A DNA stretch of 32,000 nt, from assembly GCF_000146505.1 (NCBI RefSeq), contig NC_017448.1, positions 1,530,001 to 1,562,000 of the forward strand, written 5' to 3'. A model generated the notes under the pieces. It did not search any database. It had not been told where the DNA came from and saw nothing but the letters and a program-made list of their open reading frames with translations. Positions 5,077 to 17,336 of this stretch are shown here, piece by piece. The translations under genes and the position numbers were made by a program. How positions within the stretch are numbered: position 1 is the first letter of the stretch; every line of letters begins with the position of its first letter. The stretch comes from Fibrobacter succinogenes subsp. succinogenes S85 (GTDB taxonomy: Bacteria; Fibrobacterota; Fibrobacteria; Fibrobacterales; Fibrobacteraceae).

Positions 5077-5104
5077 CATTCAATTTCAAGCGGATTGCTT
5101 AAGA

Positions 5105-5920
5105 TTACTGCTGAGCAGCAGCCTTCTTAGCAGCCTTAGCAGGCTTCTTCTGTTCCTGCTTAGCAGGCTTCTGTTCTTCAGCAGGCTTTTCCGGAGCGAT
5201 CACTTCGAGAAGTTCCATTTCGAACTTGAGGACAGAGTTGCCCGGGATAGCACGGTTGCCACGCGGACCGTAAGCGAGATCGCTCGGAATCCATGCGACG
5301 ACCTTTTCGCCAACCTTCATGAGCTTGAGCATTTCAGTCCAGCCAGAGATAACGGCCGTGACCGGGAATTCAAGCGGCTGACCACGGTCGACAGAGCTGT
5401 CGAACTTGGTGCCATCGAGGAGCGTACCGGTGTAGTGTACCTTGACCTTGTCTTCGTCCGTCGGGGTGGCACCCTGACCTTCTTGAATAATCTTGTACTG
5501 GAGACCGCTCTGCGTGGTCACGACACCTTCGGCAGTCTTGTTCTGAGCGAGGAATGCTTCACCATCGGCCTTGTTCTTTTCGGCAGCGAGGCTATCCTTT
5601 CTTGCCTTTTCAGCCTGACGGTCAGCAGAAAGCTTGTTGAGCGTTTCCATAATGACGGAATCGTTCATCAAGAACTTTGCAGAATCGCTATTGTAGCGTT
5701 CCTTGAAAGCCTGAATGAAGAGGTCGAGATCGAGATCGATGGAATCGCGAGTCACGAGCTGGAAGCGAGCCTGGTTACCAAAATGAGCACCGAGAGCGTA
5801 GCTGTACTTGTCCTTTTCAGTCACAAGTGAGGTCTTTTCGGTAGAAGCAGATTTGCACGGTTCACAACCCGTCATAAGCATGGCAAGAGCGCCAGCTGCA
5901 ATAAGCATTTTAGTCTTCAT
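5105..5920 (-). CDS. FKBP-type peptidyl-prolyl cis-trans isomerase (FkpA/Mip-like), lipoprotein
   Basis: ATG preceded by GAGGA. Lipobox MTGC. FKBP C-domain SGLQYKIIQEGQG...VKVHYTGTLLDGTKFDSSVDRGQPLEF...VISGW...AYGPRG. Lys/Ala/Pro-rich C-terminal tail. Confidence 0.9.
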   Translation of the reverse strand: MKTKMLIAAGALAMLMTGCEPCKSASTEKTSLVTEKDKYSYALGAHFGNQARFQLVTRDSIDLDLDLFIQAFKERYNSDSAKFLMNDSVIMETLNKLSADRQAEKARKDSLAAEKNKADGEAFLAQNKTAEGVVTTQSGLQYKIIQEGQGATPTDEDKVKVHYTGTLLDGTKFDSSVDRGQPLEFPVTAVISGWTEMLKLMKVGEKVVAWIPSDLAYGPRGNRAIPGNSVLKFEMELLEVIAPEKPAEEQKPAKQEQKKPAKAAKKAAAQQ

Positions 5921-6049
5921 TTTTATCCTCTATGAAAAAATAGACGTTCTTAAAATAGTAAAACAAACCACATAAAGCTTACAATAATTTTCTTTTTACC
6001 TTTACATTTAGTATATTTTCCGCTATCAATTAAACTATCAGGAAATATT

Positions 6050-7879
6050 ATGTGCGGAATTATCGGATATAATGGAAAAGGGGAAGCTTTACCGGTCCTC
6101 GTCGAAGGACTCAAGAAAATGGAATACCGAGGCTATGATAGCTCAGGTGTTGCCGTCATTGATAACGGTCAAATAAAAGTTGTCCGTGCATCCGGAAAAA
6201 TCAAGGCTCTCGAAGACAAATTAAAGACCACCCCGCTCAAGGGTTCTATTGGCATTGCCCACACGCGCTGGGCCACCCATGGCGCCCCCACCGAAACAAA
6301 CGCACACCCTCATACAAGCTATGACGGAAAGATTTCGATTGTCCACAACGGCATTATCGAAAACTACGCAAGCCTCAAGGCGAAGCTCATCTCCGAAGGT
6401 ATTGAATTCAAGTCTGAGACCGATACCGAAGTCGTAGCCCACCTGATTGCACGCTATTACAATGGCGACCTCAAATCCGCCGTACTCAAGGCTCTCAAGC
6501 AGATTGAAGGTACTTTCGGTCTTGGCGTTGTTTGCAGCGACGAACCGAACGTCTTGATTGGCGCCCGCCGTGGAAGTCCTCTCATTTTGGGTATCGGAAA
6601 CGATGGCGATTTCTACCTCGCGAGTGACGTTTCCGCCATCATCAACCACACGCAGAAAGTCGTTTACCTTGATGACAACGACGTTGTCCAAATCAAGGAT
6701 GGCGGCTATTCCATCGTGAACATGAGCAGCCACGAAGTGCAGCGCGAAGTCCAGGACGTGGAATTCGACGCCGATGCAGTCGCCAAGGGCGGATTCCCGC
6801 ACTTCATGCTCAAGGAAATTTTCGAACAGCCCGAAGTATTGCGCAATACCATGCGCGGTCGTTTGCTCACCGCCGAAGGCAACGCAAAGCTCGCTGGCCT
6901 CGACACGAACATCAAGGAACTCCGTAACATCAACCGCATCATCATCACCGCCTGCGGCACAAGCTACTATGCAGGCATGGTCGGTGAATACATGATTGAA
7001 GACTTGGCTGGCGTCCCGGTCGAAGTCGAATACGCTTCGGAATTCCGCTACAGAAACCCGATTATCAAGCCGGGAACTCTCGTCATTGCCATCAGCCAGT
7101 CCGGCGAAACTGCAGATACGCTCGCCGCTCTCCGCGAAGCCCAGCAGAAAGGCGCAACCGCACTCGCCATCTGTAACGGTGTCGGTTCGACGATCGCTCG
7201 CACAAGCGACGGTGGCGTCTACCTGCACGCCGGTCCGGAAATCGGCGTGGCCAGCACCAAGGCTTTCACAAGCCAGGTGACCGTGCTCGCCATGATTGCC
7301 CTCTTGCTCGGCCGCCAACGCAGACTCAGCTTTGAAACAGGCGCCGACATCGTGAAGGACCTTTTGGAACTTCCGGATCTCGTGACGGAAACGCTCAAGC
7401 TCTCCGACAGCATCGCCGAAATTGCCAAGACGCTCTGCAAGGCAAACAACTTCTTGTACCTCGGTCGCCACTTCTGCTACCCGGTCGCCATGGAAGGCGC
7501 TTTGAAGCTCAAGGAAATCAGCTACATCCACGCCGAAGGCTACCCCGCTGCAGAAATGAAGCACGGTCCGATTGCCCTTATCGACGAAAACATGCCGGTC
7601 GTGGTCATCGCCCCGAAGGATTCGCTCTTCGACAAGATCATCAGCAATATCCGCGAAATCAAGGCTCGCGGAGGCAAGGTCATCGCCGTCACGACGGAAG
7701 ATTGCCACCCACTTGACGAAATCGCTGACCACATCATCACAGTCCCGAAGACCCGCCCGATGCTCATGCCGATTCTCGCCTGCATTCCGCTCCAGTTGCT
7801 CGCCTACCACATCGCCGTGTTGCGCGGAAACGACGTGGACCAGCCGAGAAACCTTGCCAAGAGCGTGACGGTGGAATAA
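6050..7879 (+). CDS. glmS: Glutamine--fructose-6-phosphate aminotransferase (isomerizing)
   Basis: N-terminal MCGIIGY (Ntn Cys), 609 aa, two SIS domains (ACGTSYYAG, SQSGETADT) and the C-terminal ...DQPRNLAKSVTVE typical of GlmS. Confidence 0.98.
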   Translation: MCGIIGYNGKGEALPVLVEGLKKMEYRGYDSSGVAVIDNGQIKVVRASGKIKALEDKLKTTPLKGSIGIAHTRWATHGAPTETNAHPHTSYDGKISIVHNGIIENYASLKAKLISEGIEFKSETDTEVVAHLIARYYNGDLKSAVLKALKQIEGTFGLGVVCSDEPNVLIGARRGSPLILGIGNDGDFYLASDVSAIINHTQKVVYLDDNDVVQIKDGGYSIVNMSSHEVQREVQDVEFDADAVAKGGFPHFMLKEIFEQPEVLRNTMRGRLLTAEGNAKLAGLDTNIKELRNINRIIITACGTSYYAGMVGEYMIEDLAGVPVEVEYASEFRYRNPIIKPGTLVIAISQSGETADTLAALREAQQKGATALAICNGVGSTIARTSDGGVYLHAGPEIGVASTKAFTSQVTVLAMIALLLGRQRRLSFETGADIVKDLLELPDLVTETLKLSDSIAEIAKTLCKANNFLYLGRHFCYPVAMEGALKLKEISYIHAEGYPAAEMKHGPIALIDENMPVVVIAPKDSLFDKIISNIREIKARGGKVIAVTTEDCHPLDEIADHIITVPKTRPMLMPILACIPLQLLAYHIAVLRGNDVDQPRNLAKSVTVE

Positions 7880-7911: not shown

Positions 7912-7938
7912 AAACCCCTCCCTGACGGGAGGGGCTTT
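7912..7938. terminator. GC-rich hairpin between convergent glmS and the frameshifted gene (possible bidirectional terminator)
   Basis: Stem CCCCTCCC (7915-7922) / GGGAGGGG (7927-7934), loop TGAC, extended by AAA/TTT with one bulged C. The T tracts on both sides are weak. Confidence 0.5.
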
Positions 7939-7970: not shown

Positions 7971-8562
7971 TCAATACCGAGGCAAGAAAAATCCCTTAAT
8001 ACATTCTTTATTACGAACACACACTTGGATATGATTCTTATCTCCAAATTGAGTTCCCGGATAAGCTGGAGCTCCTTCAGTAAATGCACCGCGAGCAGTA
8101 TCAAAATAAGGAATATTTTCGGCAATATCCCTTAAAGAATGCAAATGTTCTATCAAAAAAACAATCCAAATACCTTAGAACTCCACTAGGATTTGGTTTT
8201 CCTTTTAAATCCGTATTTTGTGGTATAGGCGCCCCCATTCGCTTTAGATCTATGAGAAATTCAGGATAATCTTTAGAAAGCAATTCAACAAAATGCTTGT
8301 CTGTCAAATCAAGACATTTTTCCAGCGTATAGACGACGCCAATTGCAAACGATTCCTTAAATTTCGGATAATGATTACTCGCCCAATCTAAAGCTCTATC
8401 GTAGTTATTTTCCCACACATAGAATCCATGACCAAGCCATTCATAATCATGAGCACTCATGTGAATGCGATTAGGATGAAGAATTAAATCTATCCCCACT
8501 TTTTTTTCGCAACCATGAAATCCAATATATAAATTAGGACGGTCCAAGTAGATATCGTCCAT
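7971..8562 (-). pseudogene. Frameshifted gene for an uncharacterised ~197-aa protein (fragments 8101..8562 and 7971..8156)
   Basis: Two minus-strand ORFs overlap at an A7 run (8155-8161; T7 on the coding strand). Removing one T joins ...GVLRYLDCF to LIEHLHSLRDIAENIPYFDT...HIQVCVRNKECIKGFF in one frame. ATG 8562 sits 8 nt after the stop of the small upstream ORF, with AAGGA upstream. Confidence 0.6.
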
Positions 8563-8570
8563 AAAAAGGT

Positions 8571-8735
8571 CTATCCTTTAGGCGTTTGAGCCTGGATACA
8601 CCTACGATAAAGAGCAGTCATTCTGCCCGTTTTAGTAAGGATACCCGCTCTTTGCAACCGTCGAAGAGCGGCCTCCCTTGAATGATCCATCGTTTCGATG
8701 GCATGTAAAGTGTCTTTTATCAAATTTTCAGTCAT
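8571..8735 (-). CDS. Small 54-aa protein (MTENLIKDTLHAIETMDHSREAALRRLQRAGILTKTGRMTALYRRCIQAQTPKG), antitoxin-like position
   Basis: Hand translation; too short for the ORF track. ATG 8735 is preceded by AGAGG. Its TAG stop at 8571-8573 lies 8 nt upstream of the next gene's ATG, an operonic arrangement. Confidence 0.45.
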   Translation of the reverse strand: MTENLIKDTLHAIETMDHSREAALRRLQRAGILTKTGRMTALYRRCIQAQTPKG

Positions 8736-8910: not shown

Positions 8911-11900
8911 ATGGCTGATTTTAGCAAATTCTTATTTTTTGATTTGGAATACAATCCCGAAACACAAAAGGTTCGGGAATACGGCTATATTCTAGGCGAA
9001 GAAGAAGTTCGTGAAAGAAATACTGCAAAACTAGAACAAGCAGCATCAAAAGCAAAATACATCGTAGGGCACAATGTACTTCGTCACGACGCCCCAATAC
9101 TCCGGCAATATTTTTCTATTGATTTTCCAAACATCCATGCGCTCGACACTTTAATGTTGTCATCGTTATTGTTTCCTCGCAAGCCTTACCACAAACTACG
9201 CAAGGAATATCTGCATAATGAAGACGAACCTTCGAACCCGTTGGAAGACACCAAGCTTTGCAAGAAGCTGTTAGAGGACTGCATTAAAAAATGGGATAAT
9301 TATCCGTGGCAGCTCCAATATCTACTATTTCAATTTCTAAAAAACGAGCCTGGTTTTGCGCCATTTTTCGAACTTGTCGATACGCCAAATCCGATAAAAC
9401 TACGTTTAAAGCTGTCAGAAATACAACATTGGTTTACCGAAAACTACGAAAAAACGATATGCCTTCGCCAAAACTTTCAAAACGAATGGGCTGCATATCG
9501 TGCTGAATGGTGTTTTCTTTTAACACTTTTTCATGAAGAAGGGCCTAGCGATTACGTACCACATTGGGTGCGATACCAATATCCGCATCTTGAAAACATT
9601 TTGCATCGCAGGCGACTTGTTCCCTGTGGCAACCCGCAATGTCCTTATTGTTCCGAACAACTAAACTCCACCAAACAGTTAAAGAAATGGTTTGGTTTTG
9701 ACAATTTTCGTTCTTTTAACGGAGAACAAGTTCCTCTGCAACAACAAGTCGTCGAATCGGCAATGCGAGGAGAATCTTTGTTAGCGGTATTCCCGACTGG
9801 TGGCGGAAAATCCATGACGTTCCAGCTACCCGCATTAATTGCAGGAACACAAATAGGAGCGCTTACAGTTGTAATATCTCCTATTGTTGCACTAATGAAA
9901 GACCAAGTTGACGTACTCGAAAAACGAAGACAGATTGGAGACGCGGCCTACATAAACTCAATGCTATCGCCAGCCGAAAGAAAAGATGTCATTGAGAAAG
10001 TCAACAATGGCGAAAAGAATATTCTTTACATTTCACCAGAGTCATTGCGTTCCAATACGACATTCAATTTATTGAAGCACAGACGCGTAGAACGAATCGT
10101 CGTTGACGAGGCACACTGTTTTAGCGGTTGGGGACATGATTTTAGAGTCGACTATCTTTACTTAGCAGATTTTCTAAAAGATTTGCAAAAAGAAAAGAAT
10201 CTTGAAACTCCGATTCCCGTAAGTTGTTTTACGGCTACAGCAAAGCAATCTGTGGTAGACGATATTTGCAACTATTTCAAGGAACGTCTTAATCTTGATT
10301 TAATCAAGTTCATTAGCCCAGCCAAACGAACAAACCTGACATACAAAGTTCTTGAATCTTCGGAATCACCTAACGAACGTCGTAAACAATTAGTAAATGT
10401 TCTTCGTGATTACAATGGTCCTAAAATCATTTACGCATCCAAGGTCAAGACTACAGAATCTCTAGCCGAAGAATTACACAACCGCGGTTTTGCAAGTGCC
10501 TGCTATAATGGCAAAATGGAATCCGAAAAGAAGATGACCATTCAAGACCAATTCCAAAATGGTGAAGTCGACACAATGGTCGCAACAACCGCATTTGGAA
10601 TGGGCGTTGATAAAGACAATGTTGAGTTAGTTGCTCATTACGAAATTTCAAGTACGCTTGAAAATTATGTTCAAGAAGCGGGACGTGCAGGTCGTGATCC
10701 CAAATTGCAAGCAAGCTGTATTGCACTATTCAATCCAAAAGATCTCGACACAAATTTTCAAATTCTTCAGCAATCTAAACTTTCTGCACAAGAAATTTCT
10801 GCTGTTTGGCGAGTACTTAAAAAGGCAGCAGGTAATCAAAATCGTTTGATTATGTCGGCACTTGAAATTGCCGACCAATGCGGATGGACTGAAAAAGAAA
10901 CGGACGCCAGCGTTAACACAACAAAAGTCAAGCTAGCCATTCTCGTTTTGGAAGAACAAGGATTCCTAAAACGTAAACGCAATAGAACCCAAATGTACGG
11001 TTCTTCTATTACAGTAGAATCCGCAGAGCAAGCCCGAGAAGCTATAGGCTCCGATAAAATTGAAATTCTTAATTCGGTAGAAAGCATTGCATACCGAATC
11101 ATTCACCACATCATCAGCAAACGTTGGACACGATCTCCTGAATGCGCTCTTGACGAGCTCACTGTCAATCTAGGCTTAACAAGAGAGCAAGCCAACGACG
11201 GCTTACGTTTGCTGCGTTCATTACACCTTCTTAATGAAGACGATGACTGGAGCGCAAGATTACAAAGAAAAGGGAACGACACACCTCGTTCACTCTTAAA
11301 AGCGGCATACGAACTACAAGAGGAACTATTAAAAGCTTGTGAAGGCAAGGGAATTAACGATCGGTTTGTGTTAGACATGACCAAACTCAATTCCCTGTTG
11401 AACCAAAGAGGCGATGCAGTTGGTGCATCAACATCACGTCGCAATCTTTTCATATTCCGTGGTATTTTACGCTATTGGGCACATGAAAGTGTCGCCGAAA
11501 TTCATCTTGTAGAAGCGGGTCACCAAGTTTATCAAATTGAGTTTCTTGTTCCGCCTGAATCCGTCAAAGAAAATCTCAGAAAGCAATGGAAATTATTTGA
11601 CAAAGTCATTGACACCTTGATAGAAATGCAAAAGGAACAGACTCGCCAAAATGGAAATATTGTCTGGTTCTCTTTGAATGGCTTAATGAAAAGAATGTAC
11701 AAGGAAAAAGGTGAAATAGCTGTCGCTCGCATTGAGAAGCAAAAGCAGCTTGAATATGCACTTCTTTTCTTACATCTTGTTGGTTCTATCACGCTAGATC
11801 ATGGTCTTGTTGTTTTCTATACCGGACTTGTCATGGAATTAAATCCAGAGGCAAAGCAACGGAATTTCACAGCCAAAGATTTTGAAATGCTCAACACTCA

Positions 11901-13878
11901 TTATAAGCACAAGGCTGAAGCTATTCACATTGTTGGCGAATATGCAAAGATGATGCTTATTGATGAAAAAGCGGCACAACAATTGCTAGACGATTACTTC
12001 GTCATGGATATAGCGGATTTCCGTCTAAAATATATGCAAGGCATAGAACAGATGGAATCCGTATCCGATGAATTAAAACGAAAAATAGAAAGTGTCAATG
12101 ACGAACAGCGCAAGATTATCAAAAGCCGTAAAAAGCACATTCTCGTAGGTGCAGGTCCAGGCTCGGGAAAAACGCACTTACTCGTCCATAAAGTAGCCTC
12201 TCTTTTATGGATTGAAGAAGCAAAGCCAGATTCAATCTTGTGTCTAACATATACTCGCGCAGCATGTCGCGAGCTGAAGAAACGTTTATTCGATTTAGCA
12301 GGCCCTTTAGCAGCAAAGGTAAATATCACCACCTTCCATTCGCTCGCCTTTTCAATTTTAGGAGTACAAGGAAACAAAAAAGCGCTTGAAAATGCAGACG
12401 ATGTCGTATCCAAAGCAGCAGAGCTTTTAGAATCAGGCGAAGAAGCCGGTGTAGGAGCACCCACAGTTATCTTGGTCGACGAATTTCAGGACCTATCCGC
12501 AGGAGAATATCGCTTATTACGAGCCCTATATGATTTAGGAGAAAAAGATCCTCGCGTTATCGTAGTTGGCGATGACGATCAAAGTATTTTCGCGTTCCGA
12601 GGAAGTTCCTCCGAATACTTCCAAAAATTTGCCGACGAATTTCCTAATACAGAAAAATTCTATCTAACAACTAATTACCGTTCCGTTGCTGGTCTCGTCC
12701 GAGCAAATGCAAAATTACTCGAATTGATGACAGAACGCGTAAAAGAAGGTTCTCAACAACTCGCTTTAAAGCATAGCCAAGCCGAGCTTGCATTTTACGA
12801 AGAAGGAGACAAGGCAACTGCAGCATTCGGCGCAGCTGAAATTCTTGCACAAAAATTCAAATCAAATCCAACTGAGTCTTACTGCATTTTAACCCGAGAA
12901 AATGCAGAAGCGTTCTTGGCTGCAGCGAAGCTTGAAGAAAAACAAGTTCCATATCGAATGTTAAAAGGCCGAGATAAGGACAAATGCCCCATTGAGAAGA
13001 CTCGAGAAATTTTAGGTTTCTACGCCATTCTTCAAGAAGATCCAAGAGTGGGAAAATTTCCGTGGAGCGCAAAAGAATTTAAACGCATAGCCGAGGACTA
13101 TAAAACAAGCCACCCAACAGAAAGCTCCTTTGAACTTTTAGATGCACTAATAGATGATTTTATCGAAACAGAAACTGCTTGTGGTGAAGATTCTATTACT
13201 CTAGGCGACTTCAATCAATATTTAAGCGAAGTATCTTACAGCGATTTTTCATCAAAAAACATGGGCGCAGTTTCTATTGGAACAATGCATAGTGCAAAAG
13301 GACTTGAATGGGATAATGTTATTCTCGCATTAGGCTCTTGGGTTCTGAAAGATGCCGATGAAAAGAAGGCTCAGGAAAATTATCGCTTGCTATATGTCGC
13401 AGCCACCCGTGCAAAGAAAAGCCTAACTATTATCGGCGATGAGAAAATGCTACCACATGAATGGATTAGCCACTTTGCAAAACAAGGTAAAGTCAATAGT
13501 GTAAAAATTCCGAATGTTTTGCACATTGAAACAGGACTCAGTGATGTCAATCTTGGGCATCTTCTTGAAAATGAAAAAAACAGAAATCGAGTTCGATATA
13601 TTCAAAGCAAACTTGAAACATCATCCCTACAAAGCGATGTCAGCGTAAATTTCAGTCAAGAATTTCACAACTACAATACAAATATTAACGGAAGGCTGAT
13701 TGCGGCATTCTCTAACGACTTTTCAAAAAAATGTATCGCATACCTGCAAAGGTACGGCTATAAACCTACTACTACAGCAACTCTTTCACAAGTTGTTCGC
13801 TGGACATCTGATGATGGTCAAGAAACATGGGTGCCACTATTTAGGGTGGAATTTGCTAAGGATTCTATCAACAAATAG
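8911..13878 (+). CDS. 1655-aa multidomain protein: DnaQ/DEDD exonuclease-like N-terminus + RecQ-family SF2 helicase core + UvrD/PcrA-family SF1 helicase core + unassigned C-terminus
   Basis: Exo-like: FFDLEY (8935-8952), GHNVLRHDAPIL, LDTLML, NPLEDT. RecQ core: FGFDNFRSF..Q, PTGGGKS (Walker A ~9796-9813), ISPIVALMKDQV, VVDEAHCFSGWGHDFR (DEAH 10105-10116), FTATA, TTAFGMGVDKDNV, QEAGRAGRD. UvrD core: GAGPGSGKT (12151-12174), LTYTRAACRELKKR, TFHS, LVDEFQD (12478-12492), VGDDDQSIFAFRGS, TNYRS, TMHSAKGLEWDNV, LLYVAATRAKKSL. No Shine-Dalgarno sequence is visible before the ATG. Confidence 0.9.
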   Translation: MADFSKFLFFDLEYNPETQKVREYGYILGEEEVRERNTAKLEQAASKAKYIVGHNVLRHDAPILRQYFSIDFPNIHALDTLMLSSLLFPRKPYHKLRKEYLHNEDEPSNPLEDTKLCKKLLEDCIKKWDNYPWQLQYLLFQFLKNEPGFAPFFELVDTPNPIKLRLKLSEIQHWFTENYEKTICLRQNFQNEWAAYRAEWCFLLTLFHEEGPSDYVPHWVRYQYPHLENILHRRRLVPCGNPQCPYCSEQLNSTKQLKKWFGFDNFRSFNGEQVPLQQQVVESAMRGESLLAVFPTGGGKSMTFQLPALIAGTQIGALTVVISPIVALMKDQVDVLEKRRQIGDAAYINSMLSPAERKDVIEKVNNGEKNILYISPESLRSNTTFNLLKHRRVERIVVDEAHCFSGWGHDFRVDYLYLADFLKDLQKEKNLETPIPVSCFTATAKQSVVDDICNYFKERLNLDLIKFISPAKRTNLTYKVLESSESPNERRKQLVNVLRDYNGPKIIYASKVKTTESLAEELHNRGFASACYNGKMESEKKMTIQDQFQNGEVDTMVATTAFGMGVDKDNVELVAHYEISSTLENYVQEAGRAGRDPKLQASCIALFNPKDLDTNFQILQQSKLSAQEISAVWRVLKKAAGNQNRLIMSALEIADQCGWTEKETDASVNTTKVKLAILVLEEQGFLKRKRNRTQMYGSSITVESAEQAREAIGSDKIEILNSVESIAYRIIHHIISKRWTRSPECALDELTVNLGLTREQANDGLRLLRSLHLLNEDDDWSARLQRKGNDTPRSLLKAAYELQEELLKACEGKGINDRFVLDMTKLNSLLNQRGDAVGASTSRRNLFIFRGILRYWAHESVAEIHLVEAGHQVYQIEFLVPPESVKENLRKQWKLFDKVIDTLIEMQKEQTRQNGNIVWFSLNGLMKRMYKEKGEIAVARIEKQKQLEYALLFLHLVGSITLDHGLVVFYTGLVMELNPEAKQRNFTAKDFEMLNTHYKHKAEAIHIVGEYAKMMLIDEKAAQQLLDDYFVMDIADFRLKYMQGIEQMESVSDELKRKIESVNDEQRKIIKSRKKHILVGAGPGSGKTHLLVHKVASLLWIEEAKPDSILCLTYTRAACRELKKRLFDLAGPLAAKVNITTFHSLAFSILGVQGNKKALENADDVVSKAAELLESGEEAGVGAPTVILVDEFQDLSAGEYRLLRALYDLGEKDPRVIVVGDDDQSIFAFRGSSSEYFQKFADEFPNTEKFYLTTNYRSVAGLVRANAKLLELMTERVKEGSQQLALKHSQAELAFYEEGDKATAAFGAAEILAQKFKSNPTESYCILTRENAEAFLAAAKLEEKQVPYRMLKGRDKDKCPIEKTREILGFYAILQEDPRVGKFPWSAKEFKRIAEDYKTSHPTESSFELLDALIDDFIETETACGEDSITLGDFNQYLSEVSYSDFSSKNMGAVSIGTMHSAKGLEWDNVILALGSWVLKDADEKKAQENYRLLYVAATRAKKSLTIIGDEKMLPHEWISHFAKQGKVNSVKIPNVLHIETGLSDVNLGHLLENEKNRNRVRYIQSKLETSSLQSDVSVNFSQEFHNYNTNINGRLIAAFSNDFSKKCIAYLQRYGYKPTTTATLSQVVRWTSDDGQETWVPLFRVEFAKDSINK

Positions 13879-13964: not shown

Positions 13965-14005
13965 AAGCCGTATTTCTTATATCTAAAGGAATACGGCTTT
14001 TTTTG
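13965..14005 (+). terminator. Rho-independent terminator after the giant helicase gene
   Basis: Perfect 10-bp stem AAGCCGTATT (13965-13974) / AATACGGCTT (13990-13999) with a 15-nt loop, followed directly by a T-run (14000-14004). Confidence 0.7.
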
Positions 14006-14019
14006 TTATAAGGAGAAAA

Positions 14020-15009
14020 ATGAACAAAAAGACCGAGAATGCAGATATCATCGTCCAGAATCCACTCGTCAATTCATCCGTGGAAAAGATGATTCAAGTT
14101 ATCCGCGAGAAACAAGTTCTACTAGACCGTGATTTAGCAACGCTTTATGGGGTAGAAACAAAAGCGCTAAACCAAGCGGTTAAGCGAAATCAAGAACGTT
14201 TTCCTGAAAGAAACTGCTTTATGTTGAAAAAAGAAGAAATTCCCGAATCTTTAAAGTCACAATTTGTGACTTTAAACGAGAGTGGGAACAAACGAGGCTT
14301 ACACATCAAAAAAATGCCCTACGCCTTTACAGAACAAGGAGTTGCAATGCTTGCATCAGTATTGCGTAGCGATACTGCCATTCGTGTATCCCTCCAAATC
14401 ATGGACGCATTTGTCGAAATGCGACACACTCTGATGCAAAACGGAGGTTTGGTCCGTCGCCTATCCAATCTCGAGACAACAGTTTTAGACCAAGGCGCCA
14501 AAATCGTCGACCACGACCGTAAACTAGATGAACTCTTCGAGGTAATGGACAGAAGCGAACTCCAGACAAAAGGGCTATACTACAACAACCAGATGTTCGA
14601 CGCCTATGTATTCGTTTGCGGATTGATCCGACAAGCAAAAAAGCGAATTGTCCTTGTAGACCGCTATGTAGACGAAAAAGTGCTCGCCATGATGCTCAAG
14701 CGCAATAAAGGAGTGTCGGTAACAATATACACCTACGACAAAAGCAAGGTATTCGAAGTTGATTTAGCAACATATAACGCTCAGTACATCGATTGTCCTA
14801 TAAAAATACTGCCAAGTTACGGCATGCACGACCGATTTTTGTTTATTGACGACTCTGCTTATCATTTTGGCGCATCCCTGAAAGATTTAGGTGCAAACAC
14901 ATTCTTTTTCAGCAAAGAAGAATTCACATTAGACGAAGTACTGAAAAAATCTGAGGAAAAGCGACATCTACTAGAGCACTTAGCAACCGAACCGTCAAGG
15001 AATACTTGA
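14020..15009 (+). CDS. ORF6N-domain (KilA-N-related DNA-binding) protein with PLD-like C-terminal domain carrying an HxR variant of the HKD motif
   Basis: AAGGAG precedes ATG 14020. The N-terminal half (IQVIREKQVLLDRDLATLYGVETKALNQAVKRNQERFPE..CFMLKKEE...MPYAFTEQGVAMLASVLRSDTAIRVSLQIMDAFVEMR) matches the ORF6N pattern. The C-terminal motif HDRFLFIDDSAYHFGASLKDLG (14827-14892) has the spacing H-x-[K>R]-x4-D-x6-G-[A]S. Confidence 0.8.
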   Translation: MNKKTENADIIVQNPLVNSSVEKMIQVIREKQVLLDRDLATLYGVETKALNQAVKRNQERFPERNCFMLKKEEIPESLKSQFVTLNESGNKRGLHIKKMPYAFTEQGVAMLASVLRSDTAIRVSLQIMDAFVEMRHTLMQNGGLVRRLSNLETTVLDQGAKIVDHDRKLDELFEVMDRSELQTKGLYYNNQMFDAYVFVCGLIRQAKKRIVLVDRYVDEKVLAMMLKRNKGVSVTIYTYDKSKVFEVDLATYNAQYIDCPIKILPSYGMHDRFLFIDDSAYHFGASLKDLGANTFFFSKEEFTLDEVLKKSEEKRHLLEHLATEPSRNT

Positions 15010-15341: not shown

Positions 15342-17336
15342 ATGGTAGATTCCGAAGCGCTTGAACAAGAAGACTATGAGGTAAAAATCGGTTCATTTAA
15401 CGGGCCGATGGATTTGCTCGTCTATCTCGTTCAAAAAAAGGAAATGACGCTAGACCAGATTCCCATTGCTGAAATCGCAGACGACTTTCTCAAGTGGGTG
15501 AACGAGTATTCCGAAACGGACCTTTCCAAGGCGGGCGACTTCTTGTTCATGGCAAGCCGCTTGATGGCGCTCAAGGTGCAGGAATTGCTCCCGGCCGAAG
15601 AACGCGATCCGGAGATGGAAGAGGAATACAACGAAGACCGCGAAAAGCTCATGAAGGAAATGTTGGAATACCAGCGTTTCAAGCAGGTAGCCAGTGGCCT
15701 CCAGGAAATGGAAGCGAAGAACTTCGGAACGTATTCCCGTGGGCGCCTCGAAAAGACGCAGAGTGACGACGACACACTCGCCGATGCAAACATCTGGCAA
15801 CTTTTCCGCGCTTACCAAAAGAGCTTAAAGACAAAGATTTCCGAGACGATTCACCATATTGAATTGGACTACGTGACGATTCAGGACCGTCAGCAGGCCA
15901 TCAACAACTTCTTGAATGTGCATGGACGTGCGCTTTTTGAAGACTTGCTCGACAACGATTCGCACCCGATTGTCGCAGCGGTAACGTTCATGGCAATGCT
16001 CGAAATGATCAAGACGGACGATATCGTTTTCCGTCAGAGTGAACTTTTCGGACCAATCTGGATTTACCGCAAGAAGAACAACCCCGAGTACGCCGACGAA
16101 ATGGCGCACGAGACCGTGTTTTTCAGCAAGGATCCCGAAGTCAAGGCTGGGCTTGTGGAAACAATCCGCAGCCAGGCAATTGCACGTTCCAAGGAAAAGA
16201 GCGTGGGCGACCTTGCCGCTACGATGCGCGAAGCCGTGCTTTGGACGGAACGCGGCAGAAACGTCACCGAAGAAGACCTCAACGCGATGTTGGAAGGTCG
16301 CGAAGACATTTCCGAAGTGCAGGACAATCCGTTTGCCGACATGATTGCGGAAGCGGACGCCGCCGAAGGCGCACAGCAAGCTGCAAGCGCACCTGTTGGA
16401 GATGCACAACAGGCCGTAGCTCCGGGAAGTGCAGAAACTGCACCGATTCAAGATGTCGCACCTGCAAATGACAACGCTTCGGCCCCAGTCGAAAATACGG
16501 AAGCTGTTCCGGCGCAAGATGCCGCGCAGTCCGCAACTTTGGAAAGTGCAAAAGTATCCGCTAGCGAGGACGAAGCTCCGGTGCTTAGCAAGAGTTCAAT
16601 TCCTGAATTCGGCGCTAACGACGATGACGATTCCGAAGAACGCGCCCACACATTCGAACCGGTAGATGAACTCGTCGAAGAACTTGAAGAAGAAAATCTT
16701 GATGAAGATGAAATTGAATCCGGTGAAGCAGAATCCGTAACGGAAGAAACCACCGAAAGTTCGGACGATTCCAGTGCAGAAAGCACATTCCAAGGTTTGA
16801 ACGAGCAGTCTGTCCAGCAGATGAGCGATGAAGAGTTTGCCGCCTTTATGCAAAAGGCCCAAGAATTCTACAACAACGCAAGTTCCGCGCAGTCTAACAA
16901 CACACAATCCGCCGCAACATCCGCGCAATCAACTACAAGCTCAACGCAGGCAGCATCAACGCAGGCACAAACAAGCGCCACGCAGCCAACCTCCGCGGCA
17001 TCTCGCAGCACGTCCTCTTACGGTTCGGCCGAACCAGAAGAAGACCGTTATTCCTCTTACAGTTTCGGCAACGAAATGACGGACGAGGAATACATCGCCT
17101 ATTTGAACCGCAGCGCCCGCGCAAGCCGCAAGGAAGAATCAAAGTCAGCGGCATCCACATCAAGCGCAGCTCCCGAGAAGTCCACATCATCCGAGAAGCC
17201 CAAGAAAAAGTCGTTCATGCCCGAAGATGAAGAAGGCGGAATGACGGACGAAGAATACCAAGCTTACCTCGCTGAACACGGCGACGACGACGATGACGAA
17301 GAAGGCCCCGTTGTCTACGGAGCCGGTAAAGATTAA
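15342..17336 (+). CDS. scpA: Segregation and condensation protein A (SMC kleisin ScpA) with ~420-aa acidic low-complexity C-terminal extension
   Basis: The first ~245 aa match the ScpA pattern (FNGPMDLLVYLVQKKEMTLDQIPIAEIADDFLKWV ... FLFMASRLMALKVQELLP ... VTFMAMLEMIK...ELFGPIWIY). The remainder is D/E/S/T/A/Q-rich. ATG 15342 is the first start after an in-frame TAA (15321). No SD is visible. Confidence 0.85.
   Translation: MVDSEALEQEDYEVKIGSFNGPMDLLVYLVQKKEMTLDQIPIAEIADDFLKWVNEYSETDLSKAGDFLFMASRLMALKVQELLPAEERDPEMEEEYNEDREKLMKEMLEYQRFKQVASGLQEMEAKNFGTYSRGRLEKTQSDDDTLADANIWQLFRAYQKSLKTKISETIHHIELDYVTIQDRQQAINNFLNVHGRALFEDLLDNDSHPIVAAVTFMAMLEMIKTDDIVFRQSELFGPIWIYRKKNNPEYADEMAHETVFFSKDPEVKAGLVETIRSQAIARSKEKSVGDLAATMREAVLWTERGRNVTEEDLNAMLEGREDISEVQDNPFADMIAEADAAEGAQQAASAPVGDAQQAVAPGSAETAPIQDVAPANDNASAPVENTEAVPAQDAAQSATLESAKVSASEDEAPVLSKSSIPEFGANDDDDSEERAHTFEPVDELVEELEEENLDEDEIESGEAESVTEETTESSDDSSAESTFQGLNEQSVQQMSDEEFAAFMQKAQEFYNNASSAQSNNTQSAATSAQSTTSSTQAASTQAQTSATQPTSAASRSTSSYGSAEPEEDRYSSYSFGNEMTDEEYIAYLNRSARASRKEESKSAASTSSAAPEKSTSSEKPKKKSFMPEDEEGGMTDEEYQAYLAEHGDDDDDEEGPVVYGAGKD

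Follow-up and report, generated by a model that had tools for sequence, protein, structure and literature searches.

A 1655-residue polypeptide joining a DnaQ-like fold, a RecQ-family core and a UvrD-type core in Fibrobacter succinogenes, with a possible role in defence against invading DNA

The stretch of DNA analysed here, referred to below as the window, comprises 32,000 nucleotides of Fibrobacter succinogenes subsp. succinogenes S85 (contig NC_017448.1, positions 1,530,001 to 1,562,000). On its forward strand, an uninterrupted open reading frame (ORF) with an ATG start and 1655 codons was found at 8911..13878 in the ORF list, and its translation corresponds to an exonuclease-RecQ-winged-helix-UvrD polypeptide. 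The helicase gene is apparently monocistronic. From the N-terminus to the C-terminus, its product consists of a DnaQ/DEDD fold, a four-cysteine helical domain, a RecQ-type core of helicase superfamily 2 (SF2), a linker of ~450 aa, a UvrD-type core of superfamily 1A (SF1A) and a tail of ~145 aa. The presence of three modules in a single polypeptide, proposed in a preliminary description made from the letters of the window, is genuine, as the Pfam domains, the helicase motifs and the fold of the N-terminus agree, and the motifs quoted there for the RecQ and UvrD modules were all located where that description had placed them.

The RecQ-family SF2 core covers residues 257-611 (9679..10743, +) and carries motifs 0, I, Ia, II, III, V and VI, as determined from Pfam, TIGR00614, the motif coordinates and residue invariance. 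The Pfam domains DEAD (275-450) and Helicase_C (492-595) were both detected over their curated cut-offs. Membership in the RecQ family is indicated by the NCBIfam model recQ_fam TIGR00614, which reached 287.2 bits against a cut-off of 219.8, along with motifs 0-VI, the DEAH box and the aromatic-rich loop. The motif residues are FPTGGGKS (294-301), DEAHCFSGWGHDFR (399-412), SCFTATAK (438-445) and QEAGRAGRD (588-596). In a conservation alignment of 25 homologues from several phyla, with 33-82% identity to the window protein, the residues F294-S301 (Walker A), D399-C403, W407, G408, D410, F411, R412, S438-K445 and Q588...R595 were invariant. The module does not score as a housekeeping RecQ, with 315 bits against 640 for the TIGR01389 equivalog and 255 against 1015 for PRK11057, and no Pfam match to RecQ_Zn_bind, RQC or HRDC was obtained in the protein. 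The earlier remark that the usual RecQ C-terminal zinc module is absent after motif VI agrees with RecQ_Zn_bind being undetected by Pfam.

The second motor, a UvrD/PcrA-type SF1A core, occupies residues ~1059-1508 (12085..13434, +) and contains motifs I-VI, as established by Pfam, motif coordinates and invariance. The Pfam domains UvrD-helicase/AAA_19 start at 1063 and UvrD_C/UvrD_C_2 extend to 1508, all over curated cut-offs; the scores of UvrD-helicase (139.6 bits; cut-off 23) and UvrD_C (88 bits; cut-off 25.6) assign the module to the SF1A family. Its motif residues are AGPGSGKT (1081-1088), VDEFQD (1189-1194), GDDDQSIFAFRG (1220-1231), NYRS (1255-1258) and YVAATRAK (1495-1502), and the invariant positions are A1081-T1088, D1190, E1191, Q1193, D1194, G1220-Q1224, R1257, T1458...D1468 and T1499-A1501. 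Motifs IV and V are separated by an insert of ~200 aa, which by its spacing may take the position of the 2B subdomain. The NCBIfam equivalog scores for RecQ, UvrD, PcrA and Rep were all far under their cut-offs and, because this holds for uvrD, pcrA and rep, the UvrD module is regarded as a member of the family and not as an orthologue of any of the three. Across the 25 homologues, Walker A, DExx and the arginine finger are invariant in either motor; therefore, both are under selection as ATPases. Both motors look catalytically intact, as the preliminary description had judged from their motifs, and the invariance of the ATPase motifs across phyla points in the same direction.

The N-terminal module had been called DEDD exonuclease-like, and this call is right, because the structural model, Foldseek, profile and PHROG matches agree. 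An AlphaFold2 (AF2) model built from 22 sequences, with a predicted local distance difference test (pLDDT) value of 88.1 and a predicted template modelling score (pTM) of 0.87, consists of a beta-beta-beta-alpha-beta-alpha core at residues 1-130 and a helical domain at 131-256. The former is a DnaQ-like (DEDD) 3'-5' exonuclease fold (residues ~1-130, 8911..9300, +). In a Foldseek comparison with PDB the top matches were all DnaQ-fold exonucleases, with a probability of 0.98-1.0, and included the exonuclease domains of T7 DNA polymerase, Aquifex Pol I and E. coli Pol II, the TREX1 homologue Plex9.1 and S. aureus DinG (9ii8_A). A profile search of PDB returned exonuclease chains of ~190 aa (9l8b_A and 9l85_A, deposited as 'exodeoxyribonuclease III') at E=0.003, with which the motifs ExoI, ExoII and ExoIII align, and the PHROG family 'DNA polymerase exonuclease subunit' gave weak matches at residues 43-97. 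When the N-terminus, linker and tail were compared with PDB as single sequences, nothing useful was returned, and no credible Pfam match, including RNase_T and DNA_pol_A_exo1, was obtained for residues 1-255 at E<=10.

Conservation of the N-terminal fold is centred on D11, E13, H54, N55, H59, D60, D79 and D113, which are invariant. Four of these residues, D11, E13, D60 and D113, are the metal-binding carboxylates and align to ExoI/ExoII/ExoIII of the PDB matches. The canonical fifth residue, a His in the H-x4-D or a Tyr in the Y-x3-D arrangement, is not present: the position matching the catalytic His of 9l8b_A is Ser, Asn, Phe or Pro in the alignment, and the -4 position of Y-x3-D is Asn, Asp or His and never Tyr. 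Catalytic competence of the exonuclease is plausible but not assured, since the four carboxylates argue for metal binding and activity and the general base is missing. The invariant H59, which lies beside D60, is a candidate for a substitute general base.

The all-helical domain that follows (residues ~131-256, 9301..9678, +) was delimited by DSSP on the AF2 model and by conservation, and carries a putative four-Cys metal site. The C-x4-C-x2-C cluster noticed earlier before motif 0 is present as PCGNPQCPYC at 238-247 (C239-x4-C244-x2-C247); however, it was incomplete as described, as a fourth partner, C184, belongs to it. Of the four residues, C184, C244 and C247 do not vary, and C239 is conserved with variable spacing. 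This pattern suggests that C184/C239/C244/C247 form a C4 metal site closing the helical domain just before motif 0, and the metal may be zinc.

The two motors are joined by a family-specific linker (residues 612-1058, 10744..12084, +), to which AF2, weak Foldseek matches and profile-PDB comparison attribute a helical hairpin and four to five tandem winged-helix-like units. In the AF2 model of the linker (pLDDT 77.7), the hairpin is followed by four to five units of the H-H-H-E-E type. Foldseek against PDB and BFVD gave nothing at E<=0.001; the weak PDB matches are mostly tandem winged-helix or winged helix-turn-helix (wHTH) proteins (TFIIIC tauB, Stn1, p45, ESCRT-II, ORC, PadR and Lrp), and the linker profile matched MarR/ArsR wHTH chains of PDB at E 0.002-0.06. 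The linker may be described, with moderate confidence, as a predicted winged-helix array. Its earlier designation as unassigned stands as far as Pfam is concerned, where no credible match was obtained even at E<=10, but no longer for the fold, which can be modelled as a winged-helix-like array. The C-terminal tail had likewise been left unassigned at ~140 aa, and it stays so: the conserved domain at residues ~1509-1655 (13435..13875, +), recognised from the alignment, in which W1631 and L1643 are invariant, had no Pfam match at E<=10 and no PDB match by sequence or profile search.

Proteins of this composition are widely distributed. A word-indexed search recovered more than 120 clusters of 1,600-1,700 aa with the same Pfam set and a query coverage of 91-100%. 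Homologues in Fibrobacter share from 48% to 98% identity with the window protein, and those in Bacteroidota (Pontibacter, Rufibacter, Flavilitoribacter, Catalinimonas), Aminicenantes and Nitrospinales ~35%. For a family census, a profile of the family-specific linker alone was compared with 1.84 billion representatives, which matched 1026 proteins at E<=0.001; at E<=1e-10, 729 representative clusters remained. In full-length matches (about 1,580-1,760 aa) the linker is always placed at ~600-1050, and the shorter matches look like contig-truncated fragments. The family occurs in Fibrobacterota, Bacteroidota, Campylobacterota and Proteobacteria, on isolate chromosomes and plasmids among others, and the same architecture is found in closed replicons or isolates such as Catalinimonas CP119422.1 and Aliarcobacter pACIB CP043858.1. 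By tblastn, Bacteroides, Phocaeicola and Aliarcobacter were found to carry full-length copies on plasmids or secondary replicons, and 66-78% of the query was covered in replicons of Thiothrix, Cereibacter, Paracoccus, Microvirga and Croceicoccus. The tblastn search of phage genomes gave no full-length copy and only partial matches to the RecQ module, and a scan of IMG/VR with linker patterns gave zero relatives. The public annotation label of the homologues is 'RecQ family ATP-dependent DNA helicase'. In the literature library searched, no publication on a RecQ-UvrD fusion or on dual-helicase defence was found, and to our knowledge no characterised protein joins an SF2 and an SF1 motor in one chain. 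The protein family is real, widespread and unstudied.

The architecture can be compared with that of several known enzymes. The layout of WRN, to which the protein had been likened, is shared in the sense that an N-terminal DnaQ-fold 3'-5' exonuclease, a RecQ core and then a winged helix lie in one chain; by analogy, this likeness suggests that the unwound 3' strand may be handed to the nuclease. The likeness is only architectural, however, and implies no orthology. WRN is of the DEDDy type, whereas in the window family the canonical position is occupied by neither Tyr nor His; the core of WRN is followed by a Zn subdomain, and WRN also contains HRDC, whereas here the Cys cluster precedes motif 0 and HRDC is undetected; and WRN has no second motor. 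The exonuclease-bearing DinG of S. aureus and B. subtilis likewise places a bacterial DEDD exonuclease N-terminal to an SF2 helicase, but DinG is XPD-like, works 5'-3' with a single motor and is a conserved repair gene. RecBCD and AddAB are multi-motor helicase-nucleases that destroy foreign linear DNA, in which RecB and AddA are UvrD-like SF1A motors, and partial matches to them were obtained in the NCBIfam search. In contrast to these multi-subunit, bipolar (SF1A and SF1B) enzymes with a PD-(D/E)xK nuclease, the window protein is a single chain that combines a DEDD nuclease with SF2 and SF1A motors sharing one nominal polarity.

Large stand-alone or nearly stand-alone helicase-plus-nuclease proteins are also known from defence islands, namely Nhi, Hna and GajB of Gabija. 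Nhi and Hna contain a single motor each and nucleases of other folds, and none of the three combines SF2 and SF1 motors. The UvrD module matches the GajB models of PADLOC at 1e-30 to 1e-55, and the best PADLOC matches for residues ~250-730 are DpdF (E 1e-96) and PsyrT (RqlH; 5e-77), which are limited to the RecQ module. Gabija was rejected, as the GajB match covers the UvrD module only and no GajA-like neighbour was found in the window or in the top neighbour families. The same applies to the Dpd system, where the DpdF equivalog gave 231.9 bits against a cut-off of 550 and no dpd genes occurred among the neighbours examined, and to PsyrTA, for which the match involves the RecQ module only and no PsyrA-like antitoxin was seen adjacent. 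The earlier remark that the arrangement was not recognisable as any named defence or repair system is in line with these results: PADLOC returned single-module matches (DpdF/PsyrT and GajB) and no full-length model.

The genomic setting of the gene is that of an island. The GC content is 0.37-0.44 over 8-16 kb of the window and mostly 0.46-0.57 in the flanks, which confirms the AT-rich island described previously, and the helicase-bearing low-GC stretch is bounded by glmS (6050-7879, +; TIGR01135, 842 bits) and a ScpA-like gene. A terminator lies downstream of glmS at 7915-7934. Related loci, numbered L001 onwards, were collected for comparison and comprise 22 Fibrobacter species-representative loci, 2 metagenome loci, 5 Bacteroidota loci and 2 plasmid loci, giving 29 independent loci with L001 and L002 taken as one; the Fibrobacter loci were recovered with a 6-sequence Fibrobacter linker alignment, whose reach is that clade only. 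No neighbour cluster is common to the independent loci (n=29): none runs through the Fibrobacter loci L001-L024, and the neighbours differ again at the two plasmid loci and at four of the five from Bacteroidota. In L018, L019 and L024, glmS is ~95% identical to that of the window, whereas the helicase is only 59-63% identical and inverted, i.e. convergent with glmS. In L001 the identity is 98% for the helicase and 83-87% for the flanking ScpA, GNAT and APH genes. Because helicase and flank identities disagree at these four loci, repeated horizontal acquisition at a hot spot is indicated.

Downstream of glmS in the window, L003, L018, L019 and L024, the cargo differs and the helicase is found in either orientation. 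This region is a defence-gene hot spot of Fibrobacter. In other bacteria the spot downstream of glmS is the target of Tn7-like elements; in the Fibrobacter region no transposition genes or attachment-site (att) repeats were seen, and the att-like direct repeats flanking the island are only short, chance-level ones. Cys_Met_Meta_PP and PALP genes flank a second insertion site. The helicase moves between genomes as a single gene. The possibility that it is a core, syntenic housekeeping gene, which had been set against the defence proposal, did not materialise, as the setting is accessory, low-GC, defence-rich and without synteny.

The neighbourhoods lead to the question of function. A defence or candidate-defence gene lies no more than about three genes from the helicase in at least 17 of the 29 independent loci (our own tally, made without a genomic background comparison). 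PDC-S05 is represented by six neighbour proteins at about five loci, at most three genes from the helicase, and other PADLOC candidates nearby are PDC-M13, PDC-S34 and PDC-S13. AbiEi/AbiEii adjoin the helicase at some loci, and the neighbours also include a type I R subunit and an AAA_5 protein that matches PADLOC type II restriction-enzyme models. Among the Bacteroidota, one locus carries McrBC with a type I R subunit and another PLD-like, WYL, reverse transcriptase, type I restriction-modification and GmrSD genes. The reading we favour, to which we would give roughly an even chance, is that the protein is a stand-alone, horizontally mobile nuclease-helicase, which on its own would act against invading DNA in defence (or in mobile-element conflict). 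The defence role is inferred from the genomic context only.

According to the mechanism envisaged, the winged-helix array and the C-terminal domain would bind duplex or branched DNA at a free end, replication fork, D-loop or bubble. Both the RecQ and the UvrD helicase families have 3'->5' polarity, and the RecQ-type SF2 and UvrD-type SF1A motors would each hydrolyse ATP and translocate 3'->5' on single-stranded DNA. Being tethered, they could engage two antiparallel strands and either unwind a junction or bubble outwards or reel the DNA in. The 3' strand coming from the adjacent RecQ motor would be passed to the N-terminal DnaQ-fold exonuclease, as in WRN and exonuclease-bearing DinG, and foreign replication intermediates would be degraded or disabled. 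The polarities assumed here come from family knowledge, and the strand hand-off, exonuclease activity, substrate and defence phenotype are all presumed. In its most specific form, this proposal describes a single-chain immune enzyme in which same-polarity SF2 and SF1A motors on opposite strands open foreign replication bubbles or forks in both directions and supply a non-canonical DEDD nuclease. This form is put forward tentatively, and we think it more likely wrong than right. We know of no characterised helicase with the combination of RecQ SF2 and UvrD SF1A motors.

Several observations weigh against a defence function. The exonuclease has no canonical His/Tyr general base and could be inactive or merely DNA-binding, for which the EXO-like domain of Exuperantia, present among the Foldseek matches, offers a parallel. 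Helicases of the RecQ and UvrD types are classic enzymes of repair and anti-recombination, and PADLOC holds no model matching the whole protein. Moreover, several loci have ordinary neighbours only, such as glycoside hydrolases, MBOAT and Fib_succ_major proteins. Two plasmid copies adjoin partition, replication or ssb genes, with which plasmid maintenance or DNA repair fits equally well.

A second reading is that the protein is an accessory helicase of DNA repair or recombination control, carried by hosts or plasmids, which would act on stalled forks, R-loops and toxic intermediates in the manner of WRN combined with a UvrD anti-recombinase and have no immune role. Both motors come from repair helicase families, the exonuclease-plus-helicase layout parallels WRN and DinG, some loci adjoin umuDC, nfo with ssb, or plasmid rep/par genes, and several loci have no defence neighbour. 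On the other hand, the distribution is patchy and without synteny, the gene occurs in both orientations at one hot spot, and its alleles diverge far more, or far less, than the flanking core genes. The low GC content, the frequent adjacency of restriction, Abi and PDC genes and the scores far under the RecQ, UvrD, PcrA and Rep equivalog cut-offs also speak against a repair role, which we consider rather unlikely.

The protein might instead serve its carrier, be it a plasmid, an integrative and conjugative element or an island, for example by aiding replication or establishment, by processing DNA during conjugation, or by countering defences or competitors, but this appears improbable. Plasmid copies adjoin parAB, rep and a type IV coupling protein, and another ssb and parA; one Bacteroidota locus carries relaxase/NikA, IS66 and AAA_15/21, another IS21 and umuDC, and one copy adjoins an integrase, an excisionase-like gene and AbiE. 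However, no mobility gene is consistently linked with the helicase, no full-length copies occur in phage genomes or IMG/VR, and no relaxase or integrase was seen in the annotated Fibrobacter neighbours, where L004, L009, L010 and L021 are barely annotated.

It may also be asked whether the helicase forms a two-gene system with a variable downstream gene of 200-330 aa acting as a swappable sensor or effector. A same-strand gene of this size lies downstream in about ten Fibrobacter loci, and in five of these cases the downstream gene has a domain of the ORF6N or Bro-N type (those of the window, L003, L005, L006, where it is the second gene downstream, and L012). In two Pontibacter loci a conserved 253-aa ORF abuts or overlaps the helicase 3' end (L025 12888-13649 and L026 12889-13650; 85% mutual identity). 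It has no Pfam or PADLOC match, is absent from the Fibrobacter loci and may be a lineage-specific accessory.

In the window, the downstream gene is an ORF6N gene at 14020-15009 (+), which is a full-length match to PDC-S05 in PADLOC (PDLC04869, E=1.9e-105, residues 12-312 on model positions 8-301 of 306). Between the helicase stop and the ORF6N start lie a terminator-like hairpin (13965-13999, 14-bp stem) and a T-run (13965..14009, +), recognised by consensus scan and inverted repeat as a pattern match only. A representative of PDC-S05, cloned without such a helicase, was reported to protect E. coli against T7, T5 and T4 (bioRxiv 10.1101/2024.09.26.614923). At L001, with its 98%-identical helicase, the ORF6N slot is filled at 5080-5986 by a set of DUF3791, DUF3990 and a 70-aa ORF that matches PDC-M13B/C; L018 also has c8/c9 of such a DUF3791/DUF3990 PDC-M13-like set. 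About five other Fibrobacter loci also have an ORF6N relative in the vicinity of the helicase, but its distance and orientation vary (in L018 and L019 it lies ~5 kb away on the other strand), and elsewhere it is absent; obligatory pairing with ORF6N was rejected on these grounds. The downstream families are unrelated (ORF6N, HAD/PDC-S34, Bro-N/PDC-S13, Fib_succ_major, or none), and the intergenic gaps are mostly 140-340 bp. We regard a two-gene system as very unlikely. Because of the single-gene PDC-S05 match, the hairpin and the slot swap in L001, the ORF6N gene is taken as an independent passenger of the island and not as a partner, so the functional link drawn earlier between the two genes is not upheld. 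Finally, an assembly chimera or a read-through of two adjacent genes, raised as a counter-hypothesis in the preliminary description and favoured by nothing more than the unusual length, is ruled out, because the linker is kept at the same position in full-length homologues and the architecture is uninterrupted in hundreds of clusters, isolate genomes and closed replicons included.

Other genes of the window and of the related loci deserve mention. Between glmS and the helicase, and divergent from the latter, lies a small gene pair at 8101-8562 (-) and 8571-8735 (-), encoding proteins of 153 aa and 54 aa. The former has no Pfam match and only weak matches to PADLOC PD-T4-9_A (E 6.7e-7) and phrog_14664 (E 7.7e-7). 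The pair may be toxin-antitoxin-like or a defence passenger of the same island, and its previously supposed functional link to the helicase found no support. Beyond the ORF6N gene, the ScpA-like protein (15342-17336, +) matches SMC_ScpA over its N-terminal ~245 aa and has an acidic, Ala/Ser/Gln-rich low-complexity C-terminal extension of ~400 aa, which coincides with a block of high AT skew at 16-17 kb. In L018 (3129-8097), L019 (3126-8094) and L024 (417-5388), a conserved three-gene cassette directly upstream of the helicase encodes an S-adenosylmethionine (SAM) methyltransferase of 196 aa, an HNH_4 protein of 393 aa and a UvrD-type helicase of 1074 aa with C-terminal Top1-type zinc ribbons; this methyltransferase, HNH and UvrD-Zn-ribbon cassette looks like an undescribed restriction-like or defence module. 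In L008 (14703-18365) and L015 (5154-8960), the helicase is adjoined by the cluster c35, c36 and c37, the last protein of which has ~790 aa and a caspase (Peptidase_C14) domain; no PADLOC match was obtained for this cluster.

Summarizing, hundreds of bacterial lineages carry a protein of ~1,600 aa that is labelled merely as a 'RecQ family helicase' in databases, and the present comparison marks the glmS-downstream region in Fibrobacter as a defence-gene hot spot. Should it prove to be an immune protein, it would add a large single-gene system that is easily cloned and has an unusual mechanism, with a nuclease and two unrelated motors on the same chain. Should it be a repair enzyme instead, it would correspond to a bacterial WRN into which UvrD is built and provide a tractable model of exonuclease-helicase coupling. 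Either way, the family offers a natural experiment on the cooperation of covalently linked SF1 and SF2 motors.

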